The position numbers and the translations under genes were made by a program. A stretch of 63,400 nt of DNA, the filler included. It is 5 parts of 5 records of this genome, joined end to end, with 100 filler letters (N's around TTAATTAATTAA, not from the genome) between each part and the next. Parts side by side here need not be neighbours in the genome. Positions count along the whole stretch, not along the records: positions 51,171 to 63,400 come from SRR31156797_2392; 4 more parts are not named here. One strand, given 5' to 3'. A model generated the notes under the pieces. That model searched no databases. It saw only the letters and a program-made list of their open reading frames with translations, and had not been told where the DNA came from. Positions 23,234 through 63,400 of this stretch are shown one piece after another. The first letter of the stretch is position 1, and every line of letters starts with the position of its first letter.

Positions 23234-23333
23234 NNNNNNNNNNNNNNNNNNNNNNNNNNNNNNNNNNNNNNNNNNNNTTAATTAATTAANNNNNNNNNNN
23301 NNNNNNNNNNNNNNNNNNNNNNNNNNNNNNNNN
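23234..23333. other. Artificial contig linker
   Basis: 44 N + TTAATTAATTAA (six-frame stop) + 44 N. Confidence 0.99.
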
Positions 23334-49066: not shown

Positions 49067-49414
49067 ATGGATTTAAAAAATATAGAAAACTTAATTGCTA
49101 AATTTTCCAAAGATAGAGACTGGGATAAATTTCATAATCCAAAAAATTTAGTTATGGCGATGAGCGTTGAAGCTTCTGAATTAGTTGAAATATTTCAATG
49201 GCTTGATTTTGAACAAGCAAAAAACCTATCTGATGATAAAAAAGAACATGCAAAACAAGAGATTGCAGATATCGTAATCTATCTTACTAGAATATGTATG
49301 GCTTATGATATAGATTTAGAAAAGGCAATTCTAGAAAAAATGAAATTAAATGAAAAGAAATATCCACTTTTTGATAAGAATGGAAATAAAATAGAATACG
49401 GAAAGAAAAAATGA
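49067..49414 (+). CDS. MazG-like nucleotide pyrophosphohydrolase (dCTP pyrophosphatase-like)
   Basis: RDWDKFHNPKNL, EASELVEIFQW, EIAD, K...N..KYP. Confidence 0.9.
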   Translation: MDLKNIENLIAKFSKDRDWDKFHNPKNLVMAMSVEASELVEIFQWLDFEQAKNLSDDKKEHAKQEIADIVIYLTRICMAYDIDLEKAILEKMKLNEKKYPLFDKNGNKIEYGKKK

Positions 49415-49902
49415 AAAAAATATATATAGCTGGACCTGATGTATTTGAAAAAGATTCTATAGAGTTAGGAAAAGAGTATGTAGATCTTTGTGAGAAATAT
49501 GGATTTGAAGGTTTATATCCTTTAGATAATGTAATCGATTTTAATCAAGAGAAAAGAAAAATTGCAAAAGATATATTTGAAGCAAATAGAAATCTAATAG
49601 ACCAATGTGATATAGTTATTGCAAACCTAAACTCTTTTAGAGGGAAAGAAGCTGATAGTGGAACAGTTTGGGAGTGTGGGTATGCAAGTGCATTAGGTAA
49701 AAAAGTGTATGGATATATAAATAGAGCAAACTATTATATTGACCAGTTTGATGAAACTGAAAAATATAAAGAAAATGATTCTTATTTTGACAATGAAAAT
49801 AGAGCTATTGAAGATTTTGATTATCCTCTTAACCTTATGATTTCTTGTTCTGTAGAAGATATAATTTTAGGTGATTTTGAAGAGGTGTTATCACATTTAT
49901 GA
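49411..49902 (+). CDS. Nucleoside 2-deoxyribosyltransferase / nucleotide N-glycosidase family protein
   Basis: IYIAGPDVF, DSGTVWECGYA, NLM. Confidence 0.9.
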   Translation: MKKIYIAGPDVFEKDSIELGKEYVDLCEKYGFEGLYPLDNVIDFNQEKRKIAKDIFEANRNLIDQCDIVIANLNSFRGKEADSGTVWECGYASALGKKVYGYINRANYYIDQFDETEKYKENDSYFDNENRAIEDFDYPLNLMISCSVEDIILGDFEEVLSHL

Positions 49903-49945: not shown

Positions 49946-51070
49946 ATTTCAACAAAAAAACTTATAAATCAACTTAGAATCAAATATTCTTTAATTTTTA
50001 TAGTTATATCTGTAGTAACATATTTTATCCTTAATTTTATTGCCCAAGACAATAAAAAAAGATATCTAATACATACAACTGACACATATAAAATGGCTTA
50101 TAATAGTATTTTATATCAATACAAAGAACTTTCAGAAGTTATTTATACTGGTCTTTTAAAATTTACTAGAGTTGATGACAAATTATACCAAATAGAAAGA
50201 AAATCTCCTGAAGAAAGAATAGAGATTAGAAAAAGCTTATATCTGCAAACTATTCATAGATTTACAAGCTTAAAAGATAAAAAAATATTAAGTATAAATT
50301 ATATTCTTCCTGACAATACTCTTTTTTTAAAAATGAGCAACCCTTTAAAATACAATACTAAAATTAATGAAGACAAAGAGCTTATCAAGTATGTTCAAAG
50401 AAGTAAAAAAGAATTTTATAGTTATGAAGTTGTTAATAATGGATCAGGTTATAGATTTGCTTACCCAGTAATAAAAAATGATTCTTTTGTAGGTATTATT
50501 TGCATAACTTTCAGTGAACAAGCAATGACCTCTTCTATAATGAAACAATATGGAGTTGTTAGTAACTTCATAATTAAAAAAGATAAGTTAAATGAAGACT
50601 ATCTAAAACAAAGTAATAAATATCAAGATTCTCGTATAGAAGGTTTTTTACATAATAAAAATGTTTTGGAAGATATTAAAAACAACGCAAATAAATCAAT
50701 AAAAATGTTAAAACCAAATATAGAAACATCAAAATTTTTATACTCTTTAGGTAAAAAAAAGGAGGCAACTTCTGTTTTTATCAATGAAAGAGATTTTGTA
50801 GTTACATTGATTCCTGTATATCATCAAGTTACAAATGAATATCAAGGATTCATAAGCATAATAAGCAAAGGAAATATTATAAACTTGATAAACAACAATT
50901 ATCATACAATTTTTTCATTGTTTATATTTTTATATTTTGCAGTCTCTTTACTATTTTTGCAACAAAAAACAAAAAATATTTTAGAAAAAGAAAATATGGA
51001 AGAGATGTTAAAAAAAGACCAACAACTTCTAGAACAAGCTAAAATGGCACAAATGGGTGAGATGATAGGA
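49946..51070 (+). CDS. Sensor histidine kinase, 3'-truncated, probable ATT start
   Basis: Ends in QAKMAQMGEMIG (H-box lead-in); frame stays open 49 codons upstream of ATG 50093 and encodes the first TM helix. Confidence 0.75.
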
Positions 51071-51170
51071 NNNNNNNNNNNNNNNNNNNNNNNNNNNNNN
51101 NNNNNNNNNNNNNNTTAATTAATTAANNNNNNNNNNNNNNNNNNNNNNNNNNNNNNNNNNNNNNNNNNNN
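51071..51170. other. Artificial contig linker
   Basis: 44 N + TTAATTAATTAA + 44 N. Confidence 0.99.
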
Positions 51171-51189
51171 CATAATTTCCTATTATCCT

Positions 51190-54100
51190 TTATTTATTAT
51201 TATAGTTATTTAATTCTTTGTCTAAATCATTAACAAGTTTTGAAAAATATTTTTTTACGTCATCATTTATATATTCATATGAATCAATAATTTCATTTAT
51301 AGTAAATTTTTCTTTTTTTAATCCATATATTAAAAAACCTTTGATCGTATTAAATAATATATCTATATCTCCATCATCAATATCCTCTGTTTCTGATGAA
51401 AAACCATTTGTTTGAGGCCAATATATTTGAACTTTATTAGTAATAAAAGGTTTTCTATCTTCAGCGATACCATAATCATTTGGAAAAAACTTATTCATCA
51501 GGGAACTTGAAATATAATTTCTTTTAAAACGAATATATGAGTCTTCTAGTTTTTTTATATTATTAAAACTACTCTTATAACAATAACTGTAAAAGTCAAT
51601 ATTTATAAAAATACAATTATCAAATATAGTATTTGTAAAATAACAATCTCTCATATTTATATTGTAAAAGTAGGAATATGAAAAATTTACATTCTCAAGT
51701 TCTAAATATTTTAAAGTATAAGGATTAATAAATTTTTGAGTGTTAATTCCTATAAAAAAATTATTTGCCCATTGAGGAGTTCCTGTAGTATAAAGATATG
51801 ACCAATCATTCATCATACTAAAGAAGATCTCTGCTGAATTTATAGTTGAGTTAAAAAATTGTTCTTTTTCAATCTTTGTATATAATATATTTCCTACGAG
51901 TAATGCCATCCATTTATCTATATTGTGTGGTGTTCTTGAAAGAACTTCCGTTTCAATCTCTAAAACTTCATCATCAAATAAAGCCTTGTGAAAACTTGCT
52001 TTTGTAGTTAAATATTCATGTTTAGATTCAAGTATATTTTTAGCTAAATTAATAACTAAATTTAACTTTTCATCATCTATGCACCAATCATCTAGTAGTT
52101 TTTTAGGGATACCTTTTGAACTATCAAGTTTTACAGGTTTAAGCCATTCATACCATAAACTTTCACATCTTATATTTTTATTGTGTTTTTCAGTAGCTAA
52201 TGAAGCCATAAGAGGAAAAAGGAGTTTTCTTTTTTCTTTTTCTTTATTATTACAACTATCTTTTAAAAGTTGTAGTAGCTCCTTAAAAAATTCCATAGTT
52301 TGAGAGGTTGGTTCTCCTAAATTTAATAGAATTCTTGCATCTTTTACACTTGAAGTATCATCAAGTGCAAATTTTATAAAGATCTTTAAATAGTATTCTG
52401 CAAGAAGCATCTCTGCAAAAGATTGATGCTGAAAGTGTAAAAGATCATCTTTTGCACCAAAATATGAGTGAGAAAGAAACTTTATATCTGAAACTTTATC
52501 ATCTTTAAATTGTTCTAATACTTTATTATCATCTTCATTTATTTTATCACTTTCAAGTACTCTAAAAATATCTGCTTTTTTTAATGTACCTTGCTTACCT
52601 TGGTGTTTTTCATACATCCAAAGTGTAGCTATAGCATGAAGCACATTTCGAGACTCTATCTCATCTTTAAGATTGTATTCATGATCTTTGTCATCTATAT
52701 GTTTTGCTTCTTTTGTAAGAAGATTTAAAAAAGATAAATAAACTCCTGTTTTACCTATAGTTGAAAAGTCTATATTATTTATAATGAGCTGATAAACCAT
52801 ATATGCAAAGATAGGTCTTTTAAGTTCTTCTTCTGTAAGAGTTTCATTTTTTGTGAGTAAAGAATGAATATCTATCTCTTTTTCTTTTTTTATATTATCA
52901 ACTATTTTTTTAGTAAAGTTATTTGTTTTTATTGTATCTATTTTTAAATACTCTTTTATACTTGATTTTATCCAATCATTAAATTGCTCTTTTTTAAACC
53001 CGTGAACAGAAATATAGTATTGATTATTGTCTTTATCAGTATATGGAAGATGTTCTTTTATTTTTGAATCAAGACCATCGTCAAAAGGTCTTGATGTTAT
53101 GATAATTCGGTTATCTCTATTTGTAAGCGAATCATCTAAGTTTTGAATTTCTTTTATAGAATTTATAACATCTTCTACAGAGTGTTTATTTAAATCACCG
53201 CTTTCATCAAGTGAATCAACTAAAAACATATATTTTTTATTTTTAAAATCATCACTTGTTATATCAATTGCATACTCTTTTTTTAGAAAATCTGCTATCA
53301 CACCACATTTTGTATTAGATTGATAATTCTTATAATTCCTTAAATTAAAATATATTGGGATATATCCCTCTAAAGTATCTATGTACTCTTTTGCCAATTT
53401 AGAAGCATATTGTTTTAAAAATATTGATTTACCTTTACCGAAGTCAGCTATTATAAATACTATTTCTCTTAAGCATATTTTTGTTTTTTGTAAATAATAT
53501 TGATCTATTAGATCTTCTACCAAAAATAAATTCTCTTCATCATTCTTTTTATCTGTATTTAAAAGATTTGATATATTTTCCCATTTACCATAAGTATCTT
53601 CATATTTTAAATCTTCATCTTCTTTAAAACCTATTTTTTTAAGATTATACATGTCATATAAAAGTTCTGTTTCTCTTTCATTCAATATAAACTCTTTTAC
53701 CTCTTCTTTATGTCTTAAATAATTATCAGTACCAAAACATGTAACAATTGTATTTTCTATATTCTCGTTAAAATTTTTGAAAAATACTGTGTGCGAAACT
53801 GGTGAAAAACAAAGCTCATTAAAAAGTTTTTTTATATTTTCTTTTACAAAAACTACTATTGGGTGATACTTAGGTTGAAAAACTGTTAAAATTTCATCTG
53901 TATCAAATATTTCAATTTGAGTTTTTGTAATATCTTGAATAACTCTAATAACTTTTTCAATATCTTGAATATCTTTTTTCGGTAGTGCTACTTTTAAAGA
54001 TTCTCCAACTTGTATCAATGACGCCTGTAAATATATGGATAAACCATAGTTTTCAAGTTTCTTATCTGATTTTTTTTCAAAGTATACATCTATCTTATCT

Positions 54101-54255
54101 TTAGCAAAAAGCTTTATTAATATTCCTACTACTCCATTTGCATCATCTATTGTATCTTGTCCATTTTTATCAAATGAATCTTTTATAAAACTACCAAACT
54201 GCTTTAACATATCCGGCATAACTTTTGCTATTTGCTGTATTTTTTCTTTTTTCAC
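51190..54255 (-). CDS. NACHT-type STAND NTPase with C-terminal pentapeptide-like repeats
   Basis: Walker A ADFGKGKS, PIYFNLR, Walker B FLVDSLDE, IIITSRP, F.HQSF.E.L.A; ENVNFSYSYF.NINMRDCYFTNTIFDNCIF repeats. Confidence 0.8.
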   Translation of the reverse strand: MKKEKIQQIAKVMPDMLKQFGSFIKDSFDKNGQDTIDDANGVVGILIKLFAKDKIDVYFEKKSDKKLENYGLSIYLQASLIQVGESLKVALPKKDIQDIEKVIRVIQDITKTQIEIFDTDEILTVFQPKYHPIVVFVKENIKKLFNELCFSPVSHTVFFKNFNENIENTIVTCFGTDNYLRHKEEVKEFILNERETELLYDMYNLKKIGFKEDEDLKYEDTYGKWENISNLLNTDKKNDEENLFLVEDLIDQYYLQKTKICLREIVFIIADFGKGKSIFLKQYASKLAKEYIDTLEGYIPIYFNLRNYKNYQSNTKCGVIADFLKKEYAIDITSDDFKNKKYMFLVDSLDESGDLNKHSVEDVINSIKEIQNLDDSLTNRDNRIIITSRPFDDGLDSKIKEHLPYTDKDNNQYYISVHGFKKEQFNDWIKSSIKEYLKIDTIKTNNFTKKIVDNIKKEKEIDIHSLLTKNETLTEEELKRPIFAYMVYQLIINNIDFSTIGKTGVYLSFLNLLTKEAKHIDDKDHEYNLKDEIESRNVLHAIATLWMYEKHQGKQGTLKKADIFRVLESDKINEDDNKVLEQFKDDKVSDIKFLSHSYFGAKDDLLHFQHQSFAEMLLAEYYLKIFIKFALDDTSSVKDARILLNLGEPTSQTMEFFKELLQLLKDSCNNKEKEKRKLLFPLMASLATEKHNKNIRCESLWYEWLKPVKLDSSKGIPKKLLDDWCIDDEKLNLVINLAKNILESKHEYLTTKASFHKALFDDEVLEIETEVLSRTPHNIDKWMALLVGNILYTKIEKEQFFNSTINSAEIFFSMMNDWSYLYTTGTPQWANNFFIGINTQKFINPYTLKYLELENVNFSYSYFYNINMRDCYFTNTIFDNCIFINIDFYSYCYKSSFNNIKKLEDSYIRFKRNYISSSLMNKFFPNDYGIAEDRKPFITNKVQIYWPQTNGFSSETEDIDDGDIDILFNTIKGFLIYGLKKEKFTINEIIDSYEYINDDVKKYFSKLVNDLDKELNNYNNK

Positions 54256-54277
54256 TTTTTACTCCACTTTAATATAA

Positions 54278-55321
54278 TTAACACAATCCACTCCACCCAA
54301 ACTCATCAACATACTTCAAAAGATTTTTAGGTCTATACCCACTATCCCCATCCCATCTCTGCTTTACAGAGCTATGGATCAAAACTTCACTTTTTCCATG
54401 ATCAATTTTTCTATAAAATTTCTTTTTAAGTTTATAAAACTTTGTTCGAGAGTTATGTTTACTTGCAAGAGGATTGATATGGAGACTTTCTTTTAGATGA
54501 TCTTCTACTTTTAGTCCTACTTTTTTAGCTTCTTCTACAAGCCATAAAAGTGGAATATCTGAAAGTAAACCTCCATCATTATCAGGAGCATAGCTTCCAC
54601 CAACATTACTATGCGCTCCTATAAACCAAACTTGTTTTAGATCTGTTTTTCCATTTTGTTTCCAGATAGTTGGTTCAAAATCTTTTCTATGTTCATCTAT
54701 AGCTAAGGCGTGTCTTGCATATTTGATATTGCTTCCCATCTTTGTATCATAGAATTCATCTTTTTCTTCAAAAAAACCTAAAAATGACACTGGGATTCCA
54801 AGAGCTCCGACAGTATCCCATACCCCAACAAAAGTCACATCTTTTGATGGGTGGGAGTGTTGTTCTCTAAACTCTTTTGATTTTTCTCCACTTGGTTTAT
54901 AAGACTTGTCTGGATTCTTGTAGTGTTCATATGCTTCTTGGATAAGATTTGCATCATCTCTTTTTATAATTCCACAATTGTTGATAAGTCCACAAAGACT
55001 TCTTACTGTAAAAGCCCCTCGACTAAAGCCAAAAAGATATATCTCATCACCATCTTTATAGTTTTGAACAATATATCGATAATCATCCATGATGTTTTTC
55101 TCTATCCCTTTTCCTGTGGCTCCTGCGATTTTAGAATCATGGTATGAACCTAATCCCCAATCGTAAAACACCTGTTGGGTACAAACGATATGTGTTTTTT
55201 CATCTACGTCTACTGGACTTATAGCACGAGCAAGTTTTAAGACATTGGTTGGGTGTTCTTCATTCGGACTATTCCATGTTCCATCTGCACAAATAATGAT
55301 TCGTCTTTTTATATTGGACAT
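54278..55321 (-). CDS. DUF2235 (Tle1-like) alpha/beta hydrolase, putative phospholipase
   Basis: DGTWN, TNV, GFSRGA, GVWDTVG, HALAIDE.R..F, QVWF.GAHSNVGG. Confidence 0.9.
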   Translation of the reverse strand: MSNIKRRIIICADGTWNSPNEEHPTNVLKLARAISPVDVDEKTHIVCTQQVFYDWGLGSYHDSKIAGATGKGIEKNIMDDYRYIVQNYKDGDEIYLFGFSRGAFTVRSLCGLINNCGIIKRDDANLIQEAYEHYKNPDKSYKPSGEKSKEFREQHSHPSKDVTFVGVWDTVGALGIPVSFLGFFEEKDEFYDTKMGSNIKYARHALAIDEHRKDFEPTIWKQNGKTDLKQVWFIGAHSNVGGSYAPDNDGGLLSDIPLLWLVEEAKKVGLKVEDHLKESLHINPLASKHNSRTKFYKLKKKFYRKIDHGKSEVLIHSSVKQRWDGDSGYRPKNLLKYVDEFGWSGLC

Positions 55322-55359
55322 ATCTTGCTCCTCTACTAGTAAATTTTCTGTAATAGATT

Positions 55360-55393
55360 AGCATATCAAAAAAGTGTCAGAATTCCCGTCACA
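55360..55393 (-). promoter_or_regulatory. Tandem-repeat box promoter of the DUF2235-NACHT genes
   Basis: Sense strand TGTGACG-GGAAT-TCTGACA-N9-TATGCT. Confidence 0.65.
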
Positions 55394-55436
55394 CTTTACT
55401 ACTTTTTTTGCAAATTTTTCATTTTTTTTAGATACC

Positions 55437-55470
55437 TGTGATGTTACCTGTGACATTTACTTTGTAGAAT
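55437..55470 (+). promoter_or_regulatory. Tandem-repeat box promoter of the acyltransferase gene
   Basis: TGTGATG-TTACC-TGTGACA-N9-TAGAAT; TACCTGTGA repeated exactly with a 12-bp period. Confidence 0.75.
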
Positions 55471-55497
55471 TTACAAAATGATTATAAAGGAGAAAAA

Positions 55498-56262
55498 ATG
55501 TTTTACATTAACAAAAACACAGTACTAAATCAATTAGAAGAGGTGGTATATACCAACTACCAAAAACAGGTATCACACTTACCTGATAGTTTCCAACAAG
55601 AACAGTTAAAAGCGATAGAGATCTTTAAAAAAAGATTCCTATTTGAAGAGGTGATCGAAGAGGCGATCAGTTTTAATAAAAAGCTTAACTGGGATTATGA
55701 AAATCCAAATGTACAGCTTACTACCACAGCTGAAGAGCTTATAGAGGTTTTTAAACTACGAAGTGATGTGTATGATTCTATCAACTATCTTCATGAGTTT
55801 CCTGATACTATTGAGGGATTAAACTTTGATAAGTTTGATAAGCACTCTGCTATTATTTACTATAAAAACAATGGAATGATCACAGGATCTGTAAGATTGA
55901 TACATGACTCAAATATGGGATTACCCACAGAGAAAACTTTTGGATTTGATTCTATTAGAGAGGATCATAAACTGATCGGTGAGATCTCTAGAAATGTGGT
56001 ACTTAACGCAGGAAGAGGTCTCAATCTAGAGTTCAAATATCTCATGTGTGGTATTTATAATATCTTTATAAATAATGATATAGATATCGCTTTATCAGGG
56101 ATCAAACAAGATCATTTAAAGCTTTTTCAAAAGTTAGGTGGTGTAGATATTGTGCATGAGATGGATGGGTATGGATCATTGACTACTCCATTTTACATCA
56201 TCTCTTACAACCCTGAATTTGCCTCAAAGTTTTTTAAAAAGGTGTTTTTAGAAGAAAAGTGA
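55498..56262 (+). CDS. FeeM-like N-acyl amino acid synthase (GNAT / autoinducer-synthase fold)
   Basis: EELIEVFKLRSDVY, D.FD, GSVRLIHDS..GLP.E..F, GEISR, H..LFQKLG match my recollection of FeeM/LuxI-fold acyl-ACP acyltransferases; AAGGAG RBS. Confidence 0.72.
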   Translation: MFYINKNTVLNQLEEVVYTNYQKQVSHLPDSFQQEQLKAIEIFKKRFLFEEVIEEAISFNKKLNWDYENPNVQLTTTAEELIEVFKLRSDVYDSINYLHEFPDTIEGLNFDKFDKHSAIIYYKNNGMITGSVRLIHDSNMGLPTEKTFGFDSIREDHKLIGEISRNVVLNAGRGLNLEFKYLMCGIYNIFINNDIDIALSGIKQDHLKLFQKLGGVDIVHEMDGYGSLTTPFYIISYNPEFASKFFKKVFLEEK

Positions 56263-56943
56263 TCACTCATCTGCTATTTTAAAACCAATATTAGGAACAG
56301 TTTCAATCAAACTTGTTGGGAGTTTTTTTCGTAGCCTATAAATGATAGTCCGTAAAGTACTGTCTTTTATAGGTTTATTTTTCCATACTTTATATTCAAG
56401 ATCTTTAAAAAACACTACTTTCTTATCAGCTTCTATTAAAACCTTTAAAAGTTTTTTCTCTGTTTTTGATAAGACTATAATATTTTCTTTATATTTGAGT
56501 TCATTAAGTCTATAGTCATAAAGATAGTCTTTGTTGATCTGTAAGCTTGGCTCAGATAATCGATATTTTGAGTTTTTGTATATCCCTAAAATAATATTTG
56601 ATTTAAGCTCTTCAATATTAAAAGGTTTGATCAAATAACAGATAGGATCTGTCTCTAAGGCTTTTTTAATAGTATCAGTATCTGAATATGCTGTTGAATA
56701 TATCACTGGAATATCATTGTTTTTTAGATATGCTCCTATCTCTATTCCATTCTCTTTTGATCCTAGATTGATATCAGCAATCGCTATATCTGGTCTACTT
56801 TCTGCAACATTTTGTTTTACTTTATTAAATGTTTTTGCGATTGATGTCACATAAAAGCTCTCTTTTTCTAGTGACCTTTTCATATCCAATGCTACTACCA
56901 CATTATCTTCAATAATCAATACATGTATTGTTTGATTCTCCAT
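56263..56943 (-). CDS. Response regulator (REC + OmpR-type winged helix), RR1
   Basis: VLIIED, ADINL, STAY, KPF; STLRTIIYRLRKKL...IETV...G; AAGGA RBS before ATG 56943. Confidence 0.9.
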   Translation of the reverse strand: MENQTIHVLIIEDNVVVALDMKRSLEKESFYVTSIAKTFNKVKQNVAESRPDIAIADINLGSKENGIEIGAYLKNNDIPVIYSTAYSDTDTIKKALETDPICYLIKPFNIEELKSNIILGIYKNSKYRLSEPSLQINKDYLYDYRLNELKYKENIIVLSKTEKKLLKVLIEADKKVVFFKDLEYKVWKNKPIKDSTLRTIIYRLRKKLPTSLIETVPNIGFKIADE

Positions 56944-56973
56944 TTTATCATCCTTACTAAGCGAGTATTTTAG

Positions 56974-57007
56974 ATTATACAACAAAAGTGTCACCATAAC
57001 TGTCACA
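56974..57007 (-). promoter_or_regulatory. Tandem-repeat box promoter of RR1
   Basis: Sense strand TGTGACA-GTTAT-GGTGACA-N9-TATAAT. Confidence 0.75.
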
Positions 57008-57038
57008 AATAAAAAAAATCAATTATTTTTTTTATATT

Positions 57039-57054
57039 TGTAACAATGTATAAT
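57039..57054 (+). promoter_or_regulatory. HK1 promoter: single TGT-N-ACA half-site next to the -10 box
   Basis: TGTAACA-atg-TATAAT. Confidence 0.45.
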
Positions 57055-57074
57055 AAAAACAAAAAGAAAGTTTA

Positions 57075-58937
57075 ATGATGATGTTACAAAAGAGTATTCT
57101 ATTTTTAATCTTATTATCAATATTTTGTAGCTCTATTTTTGCTAAAACTTTTTCTATTAACAATGACACAGATAGCGTTAAACTCATACCACATTCCCAA
57201 ATCTATATCGATAGAACACAAAAACTTACGATTGAAAATATCACAAAACAAGAGTTACCATTTAAAGACTCACACAAAGAGCTTCTTGCTTTTGGATATT
57301 CGCCAGAGTTTAATGTTTGGATCAAACTTACTTTTTTTAATGATTCTGATACAAAACTCTCAAAAGTGATTGAATATGTAAACCCTTTAACGACTCATGT
57401 ATCCTTTTATGATCCAGATAAAAAATATGAACAACAACTAGGAGGTGTGTTTTTCAAACAAAAAGACCATACTTCACTCAATTCTATATTTCATATAAGC
57501 TTAGAGCCAAAAGAGACAAAAAACTATTATCTCAAAGCATCATCACATATCACTACTTTAATTGTAGAGCTTACTTTATGGGATGAACATAGTTTTTATA
57601 CAAAAGAGATCAAACACCAGATCATCCTCTCTTTATTTTTTGGAGCCATGATGATCTTAGGGATCTACAATCTTTTTATCTTTTTTTTCACCAAAGATAT
57701 CAGCTATCTCTATTATGTCACATATATCTTTGGTCTTATTTTACATCAGCTTGTATATGTAGGCGTTGCTGGGACTTACTTTTTCTCTTCAGAAGAGATG
57801 AGAAGAATGATTGAATACTCTCCTGCTTTAGTAGCTCTTCCTGTATTTGCGCTAGGTTTATTTACAAAAAGCTTTTTACATACAAAACAATATATCATCT
57901 ATAATAAGATCTTAAATCTTTTTTTAGTTTTAATCCCTTTAGGAACACTATTTTTTCTTCTAACAGATCAATATGATAGTTATCGAAATATCTTTACGAT
58001 GCTTTTATTGCTCTATCTTTTATATCTTACTATTTATGCAAGTTTTAAAAAGAATAAACAAGCCTACTTTATCCTTTTTGGATGGAGTATCTTTGTCTTT
58101 ACTGGAATGTTAATGTTTTTATCAAGTCTAGGAGTCTTTTCAATTAGCAACTATTTTCCTTATCTAATCGAGTTCTCTTTTTTACTTGAAGCGATTATTT
58201 TCTCTATTGCCTTAGCAAATAAGATCAATAATCTACAAAAAGAGAAAAATAAAGTTCATAAACAGCTTATCAAACAAAAAAAGAAAGAGACCAAAAGATT
58301 AGAAAAACAAGTAAAAAAGAAAACAAAAAATCTTGTAAAAGCATTAGATGAAAAAAATATTCTTTTAAAAGAGCTTCACCATCGTGTCAAAAATAATATG
58401 CAAACTATCATCTCTTTAATTCGACTTCAACTCACCGATGTGGATGATGAAAAGCTAGAATCTCAGCTGAAAACAATTCAAAATAGGGTCTCCGCTATGA
58501 GTCATCTTCATGAATTACTCTATAAACAACATGACTTTAATAAAATCAAAACCCATGAATACTTCAATATCATCATAGCTGAACTACGAGATAGCTATGG
58601 AAGTGATGTAAAAATAGATCTAAAGATCACTGCGGATCTTACAATGGATGAGGCTATCTACTGTGGTCTTATTTTAAATGAACTTATTACTAACTCTATG
58701 AAATACGCTTTTCAAAATATTGAAAATGGTATGATATGGGTATCTTTATCAAAAAACAATACTCTTTATAGTTTTGAAGTAAAAGATAATGGAATAGGAT
58801 ATGAAATAGATAAAGGATATAATTCTTTAGGGCTTACACTTGTAGAGACTCTTGCAACTGGTCAACTTGATGGTATATTTAAAGTTGAATATAGAGAGGG
58901 AACACACTCTAAAGTACTTTGGGAACACAATGAATAA
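57075..58937 (+). CDS. 7TM-DISM sensor histidine kinase (7TMR-DISMED2, 7TM, HisKA_2, HATPase), HK1
   Basis: Signal peptide, FGYS....WIK extracellular domain, G....L..YNLF.F....D..YL.Y 7TM region, ELHHRVKNNMQ, NELITNS.KYAF, DNGIG. Confidence 0.88.
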   Translation: MMMLQKSILFLILLSIFCSSIFAKTFSINNDTDSVKLIPHSQIYIDRTQKLTIENITKQELPFKDSHKELLAFGYSPEFNVWIKLTFFNDSDTKLSKVIEYVNPLTTHVSFYDPDKKYEQQLGGVFFKQKDHTSLNSIFHISLEPKETKNYYLKASSHITTLIVELTLWDEHSFYTKEIKHQIILSLFFGAMMILGIYNLFIFFFTKDISYLYYVTYIFGLILHQLVYVGVAGTYFFSSEEMRRMIEYSPALVALPVFALGLFTKSFLHTKQYIIYNKILNLFLVLIPLGTLFFLLTDQYDSYRNIFTMLLLLYLLYLTIYASFKKNKQAYFILFGWSIFVFTGMLMFLSSLGVFSISNYFPYLIEFSFLLEAIIFSIALANKINNLQKEKNKVHKQLIKQKKKETKRLEKQVKKKTKNLVKALDEKNILLKELHHRVKNNMQTIISLIRLQLTDVDDEKLESQLKTIQNRVSAMSHLHELLYKQHDFNKIKTHEYFNIIIAELRDSYGSDVKIDLKITADLTMDEAIYCGLILNELITNSMKYAFQNIENGMIWVSLSKNNTLYSFEVKDNGIGYEIDKGYNSLGLTLVETLATGQLDGIFKVEYREGTHSKVLWEHNE

Positions 58938-59622
58938 TATAAAAATAATGATTGTAGAAGATGAATCGATCGTAGCATTAGATATAAAAAAAGCACTTCA
59001 AAAACTAGGCTATCAAGTAGTAGGTACAGCCAATAAATATGAAAAAGCTATAAAAATATTTAAAGCAGAGAATCCAAGTATTGTATTTATGGATATCAAT
59101 TTAAGAAATAGTTCAAAAGATGGTATTGAAGTAGCTAAAGAGCTACAAAGAATACAAAATGTCCCTATTATCTATCTTACTGCTTTTAGCGATGAAAAAA
59201 CTTTAAAAAGAGCCATTCAAACTAATCCTGTAAGTTACTTAGTAAAACCTTTTAAATTTGAAGAGTTAAAATCAACAATTCTTTTAGCGCAATATAAACT
59301 AAACCAAGCAAACCATCCTGAAGTGGATCATAACTGTGCAAGCTTAGGGTTTGGATACTATTATAATAGAAAAGATGAGATTTTATTTTATGAAAATATC
59401 TATTTAAAACTTAGCTACAATGAAAGAAAACTGATGAGTCTTTTACTTGATGCTAAAGGAGCAATTGTACCTTATAGAGATATCGAATATATGTTATGGC
59501 CAGATGAGCCTGTATCTCAAAGCTCTTTGCGAACTCTTATCTATCGTTTACGAGCTAAGCTAGAACATAAACTTATAGAAACTGTCCATTCTGCAGGATG
59601 TAGACTTACTCCCCACTATTAA
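58930..59622 (+). CDS. Response regulator (REC + winged helix), RR2
   Basis: IMIVEDE, MDINL, LTAF, KPF; SSLRTLIYRLRAKL; overlaps HK1 stop. Confidence 0.9.
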   Translation: MNNIKIMIVEDESIVALDIKKALQKLGYQVVGTANKYEKAIKIFKAENPSIVFMDINLRNSSKDGIEVAKELQRIQNVPIIYLTAFSDEKTLKRAIQTNPVSYLVKPFKFEELKSTILLAQYKLNQANHPEVDHNCASLGFGYYYNRKDEILFYENIYLKLSYNERKLMSLLLDAKGAIVPYRDIEYMLWPDEPVSQSSLRTLIYRLRAKLEHKLIETVHSAGCRLTPHY

Positions 59623-59625
59623 AAG

Positions 59626-60315
59626 CTACTCCAAAGCTTTTTTAGCTGCCTCAACCGCATGGATCATAGTGGTATCATACACTTTTATAGCTACATCTTC
59701 AGGTTTGATCAAAAGCCCAATCTCTGTACACCCTAAAATCACCCCTTGTGCCCCTTGATCTATAAATCTATTGATAATATTGATATAGTTTTGTTTTGAC
59801 TGTTTTTCTATTTTTCCAAGACATAGTTCATCATAAATTATTTGATGGATGATTTTTCTATCCTCTTCATTTGGGATTAACACTTCTAATCCAGCATTTT
59901 GTAACCTTTGTTTATAAAACTCTTGCTCCATCGTAAAGGCAGTCCCTAAAAGGGCTACTTTTTGTATCTTATCTTTTAAAAGTACCTCTAAAGTAGTATC
60001 TGCAATATGGATAATTGGAATATCAATAGCTTGTTCTATTTGAGGGACGACTTTATGCATAGTATTGGTGCAGATCACTAAAAAATCTGCTCCTGCATTT
60101 TGTATATTTTTTGATGCAGATGAGAGAATCTCAGCCGTTCCTTCCCAGTCTCCTTTGTGTTGCAATACTTCGATCGGTTCAAAATCAACGCTTACCATAG
60201 CGATCTTTGCACTATGGAGTTTTCCACATCTCTCTTTTATGGTTTCATTGATAATTCGATAATATTCAACTGTACTCTCCCAACTCATACCACCAAGCAA
60301 GCCTATAGTTTTCAT
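59626..60315 (-). CDS. Aspartate/glutamate racemase family protein (YgeA/RacX-like)
   Basis: GGMSWEST, CTNTMH, LGCTEI; AAGGAG RBS before ATG 60315. Confidence 0.92.
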   Translation of the reverse strand: MKTIGLLGGMSWESTVEYYRIINETIKERCGKLHSAKIAMVSVDFEPIEVLQHKGDWEGTAEILSSASKNIQNAGADFLVICTNTMHKVVPQIEQAIDIPIIHIADTTLEVLLKDKIQKVALLGTAFTMEQEFYKQRLQNAGLEVLIPNEEDRKIIHQIIYDELCLGKIEKQSKQNYINIINRFIDQGAQGVILGCTEIGLLIKPEDVAIKVYDTTMIHAVEAAKKALE

Positions 60316-60326
60316 TGCATCTCCTT

Positions 60327-61013
60327 TTATTTTAATCGACACCCAGAGCCTTGAACTGTTTCAATAAGTTTATGTTCTAGTTTTCCACGTAAACGATACA
60401 CTAAAGTTCTAAGGGTACTACTTGAGACTGTACCCTCTTCCCAAATAGAATACTCTAAAGTTTCAAAAGAGACAATATCCCCTTTGGCTTCAAAAAGTAT
60501 TTTTAAAAGTTGTTTCTCTTTTGTACTTAATTTTATATTGTGCTCATGAAAATAGAGCTCTCCACCTTTTATATCATAATAGTATCCAAACCCTAAAGGC
60601 TCTAGACCTTTTTTTAAAAAGCTTTGTTTTGATTGATTGATCTTAAAAAAAGCAAGATGTATTAAAGACTTTAGGTCTTCTCTTTTAAAAGGCTTATTTA
60701 AATATCCTACTGGATTAAGTTCAATCGCTCTACTTATGGTTTTATCATCATTAAAAGCAGTTAAAAAAATCACTGGGATATCTTTGATCTTTTGCATATC
60801 AATAGCAGTTTCAATCCCATCTTTTGAATCGTGAAGATTGATATCCATAATGGCTAAATCAGGAGCATAATCCTCCACATCTTTTAAAGCATCTTCATAG
60901 TTTACAGCATGTGCGACCACGTCTACTCCAATTTTTTTTAAAGCACTTTGAATATCTAGAGCCACTATACTCTCATCTTCAACAATTAATACCTTTAAAT
61001 CTTTTAACTCCAT
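60327..61013 (-). CDS. Response regulator (REC + winged helix), RR3
   Basis: VLIVEDE, MDINL, LTAF, KPF; STLRTLVYRLRGKL; overlaps HK2 stop. Confidence 0.9.
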   Translation of the reverse strand: MELKDLKVLIVEDESIVALDIQSALKKIGVDVVAHAVNYEDALKDVEDYAPDLAIMDINLHDSKDGIETAIDMQKIKDIPVIFLTAFNDDKTISRAIELNPVGYLNKPFKREDLKSLIHLAFFKINQSKQSFLKKGLEPLGFGYYYDIKGGELYFHEHNIKLSTKEKQLLKILFEAKGDIVSFETLEYSIWEEGTVSSSTLRTLVYRLRGKLEHKLIETVQGSGCRLK

Positions 61014-62827
61014 ATTATCTCAACCTTTACACCATTTTGAGTTTCTTTTTTTAGCTTTCCTTTTAACTGTTTTGTTGCTAAAGTCTGTACTAAAAGAGTC
61101 CCTAAGCTTTTTACATCTTTTTGATCACTATACCCTTTTCCATTATCACTCACCTGCAAATAGTAATTATCCTCTTGTTTTTTTAAGATGATATTGATCT
61201 CCCCATCTTTTTCAAAAGCATATTTAAAAGCATTAGTTACAAGCTCATTGATAATAAGACCACAATAGACTGCTATCTCACTTGGAAGATTGGTATCTAT
61301 CTCATATTTTATTTTGATACTTTCATTTTCAAATCCCTCTTGAAGTTCCGTAATCAAAAGTTCAAAATATTTTCGTGTATCAATATAGGAGATATCACTT
61401 TGTTTATATAAAAGCTCATGCAAACACCCCATAGCATTTATCCTATTTTGGATTGTTTGCAAAAGCTCTATTGTTTTTTGATCCTCATATTTATCACTTT
61501 GTAGTCGAATAAGAGAAACAATCGTCTGCATATTATTTTTCACCCGATGATTCAGCTCTTGAAAAAGAAGACTCTTTTCATCTAGTGCCTTTTGAAGCTC
61601 CGAGGTCTTTTGCTCAACTATATGGGCAAGTCTAATCGTCTCGATCTCTTTTTGCAAAACTAGTTCCATACTTGCTTCATTTTTTCTACTCTCAAGTTGA
61701 TTGATCTTATCTGCTAATGCAATTGAAAAAATAATCCCCTCTAAAAGTAACGCTATCTCCACAAAATATTTAAAATGTTCAAAAACCTCTAGTATCCCTA
61801 CACTTGAAAGATACATAAAAATAAATGCAAAGATCACGATTACCCATCCAAAAAGGACAAAATATGCTTGACGATTACGTTTCCAACTTGCATAAATAGT
61901 AATAACTAATAATAATACAAGCAATATAAGGGAAGTAAGATTTCTAAGATGTGCAATATCTTCAAAGAATAAAAAAGCCACTAAAGTAAATGGATAGATA
62001 AACAGATATAAACGAAGAGATTTATCTAAAAATGGATATTGACTGATCTTTAAAAATGATCGAACAAGAAGAGCAAAAATAAAAATAGGGAAAGCTACTA
62101 TAAATGCAGCTGATTTTATAGTAAAGATCACAAACTCATTGGAAAAAAGGTATACTGACCCAAAACCACTATATAAAAGCTGATGGAAGATCATCCCTAA
62201 CATATATACTACATAGAGTAAGTAGTTTCTATCTTTTGTGAAAAAATAGATAAATAAATTATATATGGTTAAGATCAGCATTGAAGCAAAAAACATAGAA
62301 AGTATCATGGTATGGAGATAACTTTGTTGTTCAAAGGTTTGACTATCTAAAAGGTTTAATTTAATTATAAGAGTAGTGATCTTTGAACTTGTCTTTAAAT
62401 AATAGGTTTTACTCTCATATGGTTCTAAAAAGAGATAAAAAATAGGATCAATACTGAGTCTATCTGTGTTTAATTGATACAATCCATCTTTATAAAGCTT
62501 TTCTCCATCATAAAACTCAATATGAGTACTTAAAGGATTTCCATACTGTAAAACCCTTTTAATTTTTTTATTAGAATTATTTTTTAAAGTAAACTTTACC
62601 CACACATTAAAATCAGGGGAGAGTCCATAGGACAATATAGACTTATTATTATCAATAAACTGTTGCTTTTTTATCATAGATATATCTAACGAATTACTTT
62701 GGTCTATATAGATTTTTGATTTTGATAAAAGCTCTATTTTATCACTATTTTCATCAAGTATTATCTCATTGGCACTCAACATAAAAAAAGGGATAATGAA
62801 AATAATCAAGAGTTTTATAAATTGCAT
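61004..62827 (-). CDS. 7TM-DISM sensor histidine kinase, HK2 (paralog of HK1)
   Basis: YGLSP...WVK, YNLFIYF..KDRNYL.Y, ELNHRVKNNMQ, NELVTNAFKYAF, DNGKG; ATG at 62827. Confidence 0.88.
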   Translation of the reverse strand: MQFIKLLIIFIIPFFMLSANEIILDENSDKIELLSKSKIYIDQSNSLDISMIKKQQFIDNNKSILSYGLSPDFNVWVKFTLKNNSNKKIKRVLQYGNPLSTHIEFYDGEKLYKDGLYQLNTDRLSIDPIFYLFLEPYESKTYYLKTSSKITTLIIKLNLLDSQTFEQQSYLHTMILSMFFASMLILTIYNLFIYFFTKDRNYLLYVVYMLGMIFHQLLYSGFGSVYLFSNEFVIFTIKSAAFIVAFPIFIFALLVRSFLKISQYPFLDKSLRLYLFIYPFTLVAFLFFEDIAHLRNLTSLILLVLLLVITIYASWKRNRQAYFVLFGWVIVIFAFIFMYLSSVGILEVFEHFKYFVEIALLLEGIIFSIALADKINQLESRKNEASMELVLQKEIETIRLAHIVEQKTSELQKALDEKSLLFQELNHRVKNNMQTIVSLIRLQSDKYEDQKTIELLQTIQNRINAMGCLHELLYKQSDISYIDTRKYFELLITELQEGFENESIKIKYEIDTNLPSEIAVYCGLIINELVTNAFKYAFEKDGEINIILKKQEDNYYLQVSDNGKGYSDQKDVKSLGTLLVQTLATKQLKGKLKKETQNGVKVEIIWS

Positions 62828-62832
62828 TTTCA

Positions 62833-62865
62833 ATTATAACAGATTTTTGTCACAATAGCGTCACA
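62833..62865 (-). promoter_or_regulatory. Tandem-repeat box promoter of HK2-RR3-racemase
   Basis: Sense strand TGTGACG-CTAT-TGTGACA-N9-TATAAT. Confidence 0.75.
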
Positions 62866-62948
62866 GTAATATTTTCCTTTAAGCATAAAGATTTGAAAAA
62901 TATTATTTTTTATGGTAGCATACTTAAAAATAATATGGAGGATCAACA

Positions 62949-63161
62949 ATGTCTACAACAACACAAATAGAAACAATCAAATTAGCAGGGACAAAAGAAG
63001 GAACAATCAGTATTGCAAATATTACTGATCCATATGGTGCTGGAACAGGTGAAGTTACAAGTATAGGTATCTCTTTAGTTGGAGATGATGTGGAATGGAA
63101 AGTTCATATTCCAAAAGAGAATATTGATCAAGTGATCGAAGCTTTACAAAAAGCGAAATAA
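62949..63161 (+). CDS. Small hypothetical protein (70 aa)
   Basis: GGAGG RBS, protein-like composition, followed by a terminator. Confidence 0.75.
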   Translation: MSTTTQIETIKLAGTKEGTISIANITDPYGAGTGEVTSIGISLVGDDVEWKVHIPKENIDQVIEALQKAK

Positions 63162-63171
63162 CTACTCTTAT

Positions 63172-63204
63172 AAGCTAAACTTTTATTTAAGTTTAGCTTT
63201 TTTT
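63172..63204 (+). terminator. Intrinsic terminator
   Basis: AAGCTAAACTT...AAGTTTAGCTT followed by T-run. Confidence 0.75.
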
Positions 63205-63279
63205 ATATAATAATAACTAATATCAAATTAACTTTAAAAGTGCTACTATACAGTTTAACTTTTTAACAAAAGGACTTCC

Positions 63280-63400
63280 ATGAAACATCTTTTACTCACT
63301 CTTGTGTTTTTCACCTCACTCTTTTCAAACGATGGCTTCTTAGAACCAGAACAAGCCTTCAAAACAACCCTAGAAGAGAAACAAGATAGTGTTGAATTTA
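63280..63400 (+). CDS. N-terminal fragment, probably thiol:disulfide interchange protein DsbD
   Basis: AAGGA RBS; MKHLLLTLVFFTSLFSNDGFLEPEQAFK gives a signal peptide and FL.PE.AF motif; cut by window end. Confidence 0.55.
   Translation, partial: MKHLLLTLVFFTSLFSNDGFLEPEQAFKTTLEEKQDSVEF

Follow-up and report, generated by a model that had tools for sequence, protein, structure and literature searches.

The window analysed here, a 63,400-nt stretch of DNA, contains a gene for a DUF2235 serine hydrolase that is followed on the same strand by a gene for a large NACHT-pentapeptide protein, and both are divergent from the gene of a FeeM-type N-acyl amino acid synthase. Our comparative analysis indicates that DUF2235 and NACHT are probably neighbours on one probable transcript and not the two parts of a conserved defence system, and that their pairing is probably confined to the genome of the window. 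The reading that we favour, with a rough probability of 0.65, is a composite. DUF2235 would be an output enzyme of a circuit acting through a GTGAC-type direct repeat (the box) in front of it, and an unrelated, self-contained NACHT gene would share its probable transcription unit.

The evidence against a conserved pair comes from the neighbourhoods of both genes. Homologues of the NACHT protein were collected with one genome per species, which resulted in 60 loci, 54 of them with at least 1 kb of upstream sequence, and tblastn with the window proteins detected neither DUF2235 nor FeeM in the flanks of any of the 60. Three NACHT-bearing genomes, including the one with a 71%-identical homologue, gave no DUF2235 match anywhere in the genome at E ≤ 1e-5. 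The reciprocal survey started from DUF2235, which is present in 5 of 401 genomes of a phylum sample, 7 of 184 genomes of the family of G278 (5 full-length) and 17 of 401 genomes of an order sample. The union comprises 21 genomes, and flanks were available for 19 of them (no locus for G567 and G731). A NACHT homologue lies beside DUF2235 in none of these 19 genomes and in none of 16 metagenome DUF2235 loci, nor is there one in the 240 nt that follow DUF2235 up to the end of its contig in genome G507. The first-pass annotation of this DNA had proposed a dedicated pair of NACHT sensor and DUF2235 effector and had named synteny across strains and a search of defence-system databases as checks. The synteny comparison speaks against such a pair, and the second check did not lend it support either: PADLOC-DB 2.0 holds no family for NACHT, DUF2235, FeeM or three of the NACHT homologues, and NCBIfam none for DUF2235 or NACHT.

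The window is a pseudo-molecule in which separate contigs of a metagenome bin are joined by linkers of the form N...TTAATTAATTAA...N at 23278, 34131, 41946 and 51115, with a GC content of the joined segments between 0.267 and 0.325. Genes flanking a linker are not shown to be neighbours because the window consists of joined contigs; the open reading frame (ORF) at 50093-51118 is thus no true neighbour of the NACHT gene, as it lies on the other side of a linker. The contig bearing the DUF2235, NACHT and FeeM genes spans 51171-63400 and has nine genes, all of them annotated. Run X1, which with its 1.5 million contigs is a metagenome and the probable source sample, independently provides a contig of 12,230 nt that matches positions 51172-57200 with zero differences and the same end base. 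The junction between DUF2235 and NACHT is therefore real. The features of this region are as follows.

51071-51170, no strand: artificial contig joint, runs of N around TTAATTAATTAA; the DNA left of the joint belongs to another contig
51190-54255, minus strand: NACHT-pentapeptide STAND NTPase gene, 1021 aa, GTG start, GC 24.6% (ORF call, Pfam)
51586-51699, minus strand: pentapeptide repeats, residues 853-890 (Pfam)
52981-53460, minus strand: NACHT NTPase module, residues 266-425 (Pfam, 27.8 bits, just above the cut-off of 26.7)
53470-54255, minus strand: N-terminal domain, residues 1-262, all-helical in the AlphaFold2 model
54256-54277, minus strand: 22-nt spacer with a GGAG ribosome-binding site and no hairpin plus T-run (sequence and simple scan)
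54278-55321, minus strand: DUF2235 (Tle1-like catalytic domain) serine hydrolase gene, 347 aa (ORF call, Pfam)
55360-55365, minus strand: candidate -10 hexamer TATGCT, 10 nt after the DUF2235 box (read from the sequence)
55376-55392, minus strand: box GTGACGGGAATTCTGAC, directed toward DUF2235, ends 54 nt before its ATG (pattern search)
55438-55454, plus strand: box GTGATGTTACCTGTGAC of the FeeM promoter, ends 43 nt before the ATG, hexamer TAGAAT (pattern search)
55498-56262, plus strand: gene of the FeeM-type N-acyl amino acid synthase (PF21926, E 5e-19), context outside the pair
56990-57006, minus strand: box GTGACAGTTATGGTGAC, ends 46 nt before the start of the response regulator RR1 at 56943, hexamer TATAAT (pattern search)

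The layout described in the first-pass annotation stands in all its parts: the two ORFs, their common orientation and 22-nt gap, the divergence from the synthase, whose gene lies 176 nt away, the promoter box shared with it, and the lack of VgrG, PAAR or immunity genes among the nine genes of the contig. A GGAG motif is located seven nt before the GTG start of NACHT, and a simple scan found no terminator-like site in or near the gap, in agreement with the earlier description. Within the DUF2235 gene, the minus strand gave no sigma-70-like match in the same kind of scan, which describes promoters of Campylobacterota poorly. NACHT has no box of its own in the window according to the pattern search, and a well-placed box was found ahead of none of the 60 loci of its family. 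It is probably read through from the box promoter of DUF2235.

The box itself is well defined. The pattern GTGAY-N7-NTGAC has exactly three matches in the 63,400 nt, all of them within this one contig, whereas shuffled sequences give a mean of 0.36 and reached three matches in 1 of 100 shuffles. A TAnnnT hexamer begins exactly 10 nt after each of the three boxes (the start of RR1 is taken at Met22 of the listed ORF), and the same geometry is found in G507. The box of FeeM lies within a 12-nt tandem, TACCTGTGATGT/TACCTGTGACAT, at 55433-55456 in the region between DUF2235 and FeeM; the copy ahead of DUF2235 reads GTGAC-N7-CTGAC, and a CTGAC second half-site also occurs at the FeeM orthologue L106. 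FeeM has matches at E ≤ 1e-6 in 17 of the 401 genomes of the phylum sample and a strong orthologue (44-63% identity) in 13. A 7TMR-DISM kinase and an OmpR-type regulator adjoin FeeM in 12 of these 13 genomes, and a GTGAC-type direct repeat occupies the same place before FeeM in all 13, one of them degenerate. This conservation marks the box as a promoter element of a module of FeeM, 7TMR-DISM kinase and OmpR-type regulator. Regulons of the OmpR/PhoB type have direct-repeat boxes that overlap the -35 region. The box of the window is likewise a tandem repeat with a period of 11-12 nt at a fixed distance from the -10 hexamer and close to genes of Trans_reg_C regulators, whereas its half-site GTGAC and the content of the putative regulon (FeeM, racemase, MFS_4, DUF2235 and immune-type genes) fit no described regulon that we found. 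Because regulator genes adjoin the box and sites of this kind are generally bound by such proteins, we infer that an OmpR-family regulator binds the repeat.

DUF2235 is repeatedly associated with this element. A box is located ahead of DUF2235 in 6 of the 19 genomes examined and FeeM is adjacent in 5 of them, compared with a background of 5 loose box matches (1 perfect) in the 688 kb of the NACHT loci, i.e. about one per 137 kb. One example is G507, with a 70%-identical DUF2235, where the order is kinase, regulator, FeeM remnant, box, 44 nt and DUF2235. Its FeeM is cut down to the last 102 residues (L123 14425-14730), with kinase, regulator, box and DUF2235 retained. Another example is the group of G518, G520 and G521, in which regulator, box, FeeM and a second box are followed by about 390 nt of tandem repeats and a DUF2235 protein of 513 aa; this gene string continues with a membrane protein, an ORF of lipoprotein-like character and a class-3 lipase. 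The tandem repeats (L124 9464-9861; same place in L126) read as 27-aa units in a spurious ORF, and apparent small ORFs that separate DUF2235 from its box in G518 and G520 were rejected as genes because they are translated tandem repeats. In G735 the order is regulator, box, FeeM, box, 50 nt and DUF2235. In G068 FeeM resides on another contig; a box precedes an operon that holds a 65%-identical DUF2235, and the distance from a second box to another DUF2235, a lipoprotein-type protein of 441 aa, is 29 nt. The 186-aa ORF after DUF2235 in G068 and the 184-aa ORF after DUF2235 in G518 proved to be unrelated. The 16 metagenome DUF2235 loci are devoid of box matches. The link between DUF2235 and the box is thus lineage-specific, given that 13 of the 19 genomes have neither box nor FeeM nearby, yet it recurs in different arrangements and with different subtypes of DUF2235. 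Among these 13 genomes, DUF2235 directly follows a 7TMR-DISM-GGDEF-EAL receptor gene in two, lies beside a patatin gene in one and beside a Sel1-repeat gene in another. In the former two, Campylobacterota of higher GC content, DUF2235 overlaps the end of the receptor gene (L069 8675-12197 and L070 7948-11566), which connects DUF2235 with 7TMR-DISM sensors in a second way.

The 347-aa protein matches the full profile of PF09994 (T6SS_Tle1-like_cat, formerly DUF2235) with E 3e-86. The motifs D13-G14-T15, G98-F99-S100-R101-G102 (GFSRG), D169-T170-V171 and H237 are kept in 18 aligned DUF2235 sequences, from which we infer a catalytic triad of S100, D169 and H237; this conservation makes an intact Ser-Asp-His hydrolase probable. 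No signal peptide was recognised by eye. A profile of the 18 sequences reaches the solved structures of Tle1 effectors of type VI secretion systems (T6SS; 9j3f with E 6e-13, 4o5p, 6sjl), whereas phmmer with the single sequence gave 0 matches in the PDB. The Tle1 effectors have the same PF09994 domain, and their GxSxG serine, DTV and HS(N/D)VGG motifs align with those of the window protein. Their solved chains, however, are 560-884 aa long, and the DUF2235 of the window comprises the catalytic domain only and has no delivery parts. Tle1 genes are situated beside VgrG, Hcp or PAAR and a Tli immunity gene, none of which is present on 51171-63400, a view bounded by the contig end 19 nt past NACHT. 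By profile and motifs DUF2235 is accordingly a member of the Tle1 catalytic-domain family, but its context, the lack of an immunity gene and its size do not agree with a type VI effector. It falls into a stand-alone subfamily of about 345 aa whose members are 62-73% identical in Gammaproteobacteria (Shewanella, Dasania, Thiohalobacter), Planctomycetota, Desulfuromonas, Zixibacteria and others. The neighbours at the metagenome loci of this subfamily are varied, many of them of housekeeping type, and offer no functional clue. None of the family, order and phylum samples was found to contain the genome that encodes the closest DUF2235, P0121 (73%).

The NACHT protein belongs to a family of full-length proteins of about 1000-1050 aa that are 41-73% identical over about 99% of their length and occur in Campylobacterota, Bacteroidota, Aminicenantes and others. 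Across 25 homologues, the motifs Walker A (GKGKS, G273-S277) and Walker B (DSLDE, D347-E351) vary little or not at all. Residues 1-262 are modelled as 11 helices with a predicted local distance difference test (pLDDT) score of 78 and a predicted template modelling (pTM) score of 0.70 (AlphaFold2, 33-sequence input). This domain has no convincing Pfam family even at E ≤ 10, with two chance-level matches (best E 0.008), and Foldseek returned no PDB match at E ≤ 0.001. An Atlas pointer to 'NNH3/NNH1' (score 0.92, 143 shared features) is an unconfirmed lead only. Neither Pfam nor Foldseek recognised an enzymatic effector domain in the NACHT protein. According to Kibby et al. (bioRxiv 10.1101/2022.07.19.500537), the Walker B signature D[GAS]hDE defines the NACHT clade, and the list of domain abbreviations in that preprint includes NNH-type helical N-termini and pentapeptide repeats. 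The D-S-L-D-E of the window protein fits this signature, Walker A is present, and the single-gene layout of three parts, helical, NACHT and pentapeptide, is the same as in bacterial anti-phage NACHT proteins. It differs from them in its position in a probable operon behind a signal-controlled promoter; its NACHT lies outside the PADLOC models and its N-terminus outside Pfam, and a role of its clade against phages is putative.

Composition and neighbourhood are compatible with a mobile conflict gene, without proving it. On the contig of the window the NACHT gene (24.6%) is poorer in GC than the other eight genes (28-35%), and it is AT-rich relative to its flanks in 5 of 7 Campylobacterota loci checked (GC of gene/flanks 0.33/0.46, 0.26/0.41, 0.27/0.46, 0.27/0.35 and 0.25/0.29). 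Clustering of neighbouring ORFs revealed no recurrent partner of NACHT except for ordinary synteny in one Bacteroidales clade (9 loci). Up to four nearest ORFs per locus were classified for 45 loci (150 ORFs), leaving out L056-L060 and ten Bacteroidales loci that are syntenic. By Pfam and our own classing, about 22 of the 45 have among these neighbours a gene for an integrase, a transposase, a toxin-antitoxin or restriction-modification system or a defence-type function, and the rest are of housekeeping type. Fifteen of the 150 ORFs have PADLOC matches at E ≤ 1e-10, about nine of which, in nine loci, we judged to be specific (LmuB, PifA-like KAP, RT, Fic, MNT, MTase and others). With tblastn the NACHT protein had no match in a plasmid collection at E ≤ 1e-20 and none in a phage collection at E ≤ 1e-10. 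In Sulfurimonas sp. SAG-AH-194-C21 (L033 388-1015) 13 nt separate an MNT/HepT toxin-antitoxin pair (PDC-S09) from the start of the NACHT homologue behind it, which is another case of a gene of this family packed tightly behind unrelated genes.

The composite reading can be put as a sequence of events. The phosphorylated OmpR-type regulator of the FeeM module would bind the direct repeat of 12-nt period, which abuts the -35 region, and would activate a promoter whose -10 hexamer lies 10 nt downstream of the box, with a transcription start about 30 nt before the start of DUF2235. The transcript would then read through the 22-nt gap into the NACHT gene. Switching on the circuit would thus yield DUF2235, a compact and presumably cytoplasmic enzyme of lipase/esterase type that would most likely serve as a lipolytic output. 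This role is favoured over the making or breaking of a signal because of the class-3 lipase in the gene string of G518 and the lipoprotein paralogue of G068. NACHT would be a STAND (NLR-like) module that consists of one gene and spreads horizontally. It would probably act as a sensor of conflict or phages and carry its own output, and the helical N-terminus would be this output or an adaptor.

Several observations weigh against this reading. Thirteen of the 19 genomes have no box or FeeM near DUF2235 (for ten of them the flanks comprise 1.5 kb only). G518, G520 and G521 are closely related and count as one lineage, and a single ancestral event may account for both the window and G507. The DUF2235 box deviates in its second half-site, CTGAC rather than GTGAC. 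The core role of the 345-aa subfamily may be unrelated to signalling, because it spans several phyla with varied and often housekeeping-type neighbours. As the NACHT protein has no recognisable enzymatic effector domain, there is room for a partner acting in trans; its stop codon is 19 nt from the contig end, which leaves the region past the gene out of view.

The box is more widely distributed in the relatives. Perfect GTGAC-N7-GTGAC boxes outnumber a reversed-pattern control in four of five genomes searched (25 vs 5 in G068, 10 vs 2 in G507, 20 vs 5 in G518, 4 vs 0 in G278; the exception is G001 with 1 vs 3), and some of them must be chance matches, since controls yield 2-5 per genome outside G278. 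In G068, 14 of 20 examined boxes are located 29-52 nt before an ORF start, and thirteen boxes of this genome have the identical 17-mer GTGACAGAAACTGTGAC. Apart from FeeM, regulators and kinases, the box-linked genes of the relatives encode an Asp/Glu racemase, an MFS_4 transporter and uncharacterised proteins of 257-275 aa. The list for G068, which comprises ORFs starting 29-52 nt after a box (L127-L146, L172-L174), is rich in immune-type genes: two ORFs that together make up a split KAP NTPase (PADLOC PDC-S20, with E 9e-33 and 6e-47), proteins of the TIR (PF13676; PDC-S66, E 1e-15), SIR2_2-TPR (Aga_SIR2 model, E 8e-28) and DUF6161 (AbiZ model, E 1e-8) types, and a HetE-N protein followed by about 290 nt with stop codons and a 574-aa TPR protein, an arrangement that resembles a STAND gene that has been broken. 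This box set also includes both DUF2235 paralogues and a giant ORF without family that exceeds 1500 aa. In G518 (L147-L163), the box-linked genes are those for pseudopilins, a ComEA-like HHH_3 protein and DprA (216 nt from the box), a chemoreceptor followed by an NYN nuclease, and, preceded by a small uncharacterised ORF, a type I methyltransferase-like gene; the box regulon of this genome may thus include genes for DNA uptake.

These findings bear on how far the box could serve immunity. The N-acyl amino acid made by FeeM might be a population signal, sensed by 7TMR-DISM kinases, upon which the box would switch on a species-specific battery of innate immunity (NACHT in the window; TIR, SIR2-TPR, KAP-NTPase and HetE-N/TPR in G068) as well as DUF2235 lipases. 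On this view the DUF2235-NACHT operon would represent a freshly assembled unit of a quorum-controlled immune regulon, with the lipase perhaps as a shared membrane-damaging output. We regard this as unlikely on the present evidence, which comes mainly from the one genome G068, but the idea of signal-controlled defence is still alive because the box precedes several immune-type genes there. What falls from the first-pass annotation's version of it is the obligate pair. In that version NACHT senses and DUF2235 attacks the membrane, forming a two-gene abortive-infection module under an autoinducer circuit, and the tight, terminator-free arrangement behind one box, the NACHT protein without identifiable enzymatic effector but with 262 helical N-terminal residues of no known family, and the G068 box set that joins immune-type genes with both DUF2235 paralogues would all suit it. 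The absence of the partner from all 60 NACHT loci and all 19 DUF2235 genomes, the three NACHT-bearing genomes devoid of any DUF2235 match, the lack of a PADLOC model for either protein and the identity of 62-73% across phyla, unlike the usual fast-changing effectors, make it improbable.

The first-pass annotation had also named an alternative, in which DUF2235 belongs with the signal system and NACHT arrived later, and this part fits better than the pair. Its more specific claim is that DUF2235 acts on the signal itself, either by hydrolysing the N-acyl amino acid of FeeM (turnover or quenching) or by freeing an acyl chain for FeeM, with NACHT as irrelevant cargo. The adjacency of FeeM, box and DUF2235 in the window, G507, G518/G520/G521 and G735, the two genomes outside the module with DUF2235 directly after a 7TMR-DISM-GGDEF-EAL receptor gene, and the racemase and MFS_4 transporter among the box-linked genes, suggestive of a small-molecule pathway, point in this direction. 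Both box-linked copies of G068, however, are far from FeeM and one is a lipoprotein, the copy of G518 shares its gene string with a class-3 lipase and resembles a lipolytic output, and G507 retains DUF2235 and its box next to a FeeM reduced to a remnant. No amidase activity is known for the DUF2235 fold. We therefore consider an action on the signal distinctly unlikely. Finally, the neighbourhood might be accidental, the box serving FeeM alone and DUF2235 and NACHT using promoters of their own. Two boxes only 45 nt apart within the 176 nt, the variant half-site of the DUF2235 copy and the poor description of Campylobacterota promoters by the sigma-70 scan leave some room for this. The DUF2235 box has, however, its own orientation, its 54-nt spacing and a -10-like hexamer in the layout known from FeeM, RR1 and G507, and the recurrence of boxes ahead of DUF2235 (6 of 19 genomes) contrasts with a background of about one loose match per 137 kb, so that mere coincidence is very improbable.

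According to the composite reading, DUF2235-NACHT should not be catalogued as a new two-gene defence system; from the sequence data it would be an ordinary mobile NLR-like gene and a Tle1-type hydrolase in a setting that is unusual in its regulation. What emerges instead is a well-defined cis-element with fixed promoter geometry that appears to tie a FeeM-type synthase, 7TMR-DISM systems, a non-T6SS DUF2235 and the immune-type genes of at least one relative into one regulon. This element suggests what the uncharacterised stand-alone DUF2235 subfamily may do in the cell and provides candidate outputs for 7TMR-DISM sensors, and population-signal control of bacterial NLR-like and TIR/SIR2 genes becomes testable. 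Quorum sensing is known to control defence in the case of CRISPR-Cas systems under acyl-homoserine lactones. The common idea is that a population signal raises immunity; here the components would be a FeeM-type synthase, a 7TMR-DISM two-component kinase and targets of the STAND, TIR, SIR2 and KAP type. Our literature search found no paper joining an N-acyl amino acid synthase with 7TMR-DISM. Among the matches listed, papers mentioning DUF2235 mostly concern type VI secretion, the search for DUF2235 together with NACHT brought up a fungal RNA-seq study, and the search for NACHT, pentapeptide repeat and anti-phage gave a match on another topic only.

Two further observations concern the remaining DNA of the window. 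Two genes at 49067-49902 (plus strand), situated on another contig and overlapping by 4 nt, encode a MazG-like protein (PF12643) and a nucleoside 2-deoxyribosyltransferase (PF05014), and the two are possibly a nucleotide-modifying pair. On the contig of the FeeM module, a gene string at 59626-62833 (minus strand) encodes a second 7TMR-DISM kinase together with a regulator and an Asp/Glu racemase (TIGR00035, E 8e-70), and a box variant with N6 spacing, GTGACgctattGTGAC, is located on the minus strand at about 62849-62864, 16 nt before the listed start of this kinase. The Asp/Glu racemase is also box-linked in the relative L116, and its position beside the kinase together with this linkage hints at a D-amino acid in the product of FeeM.

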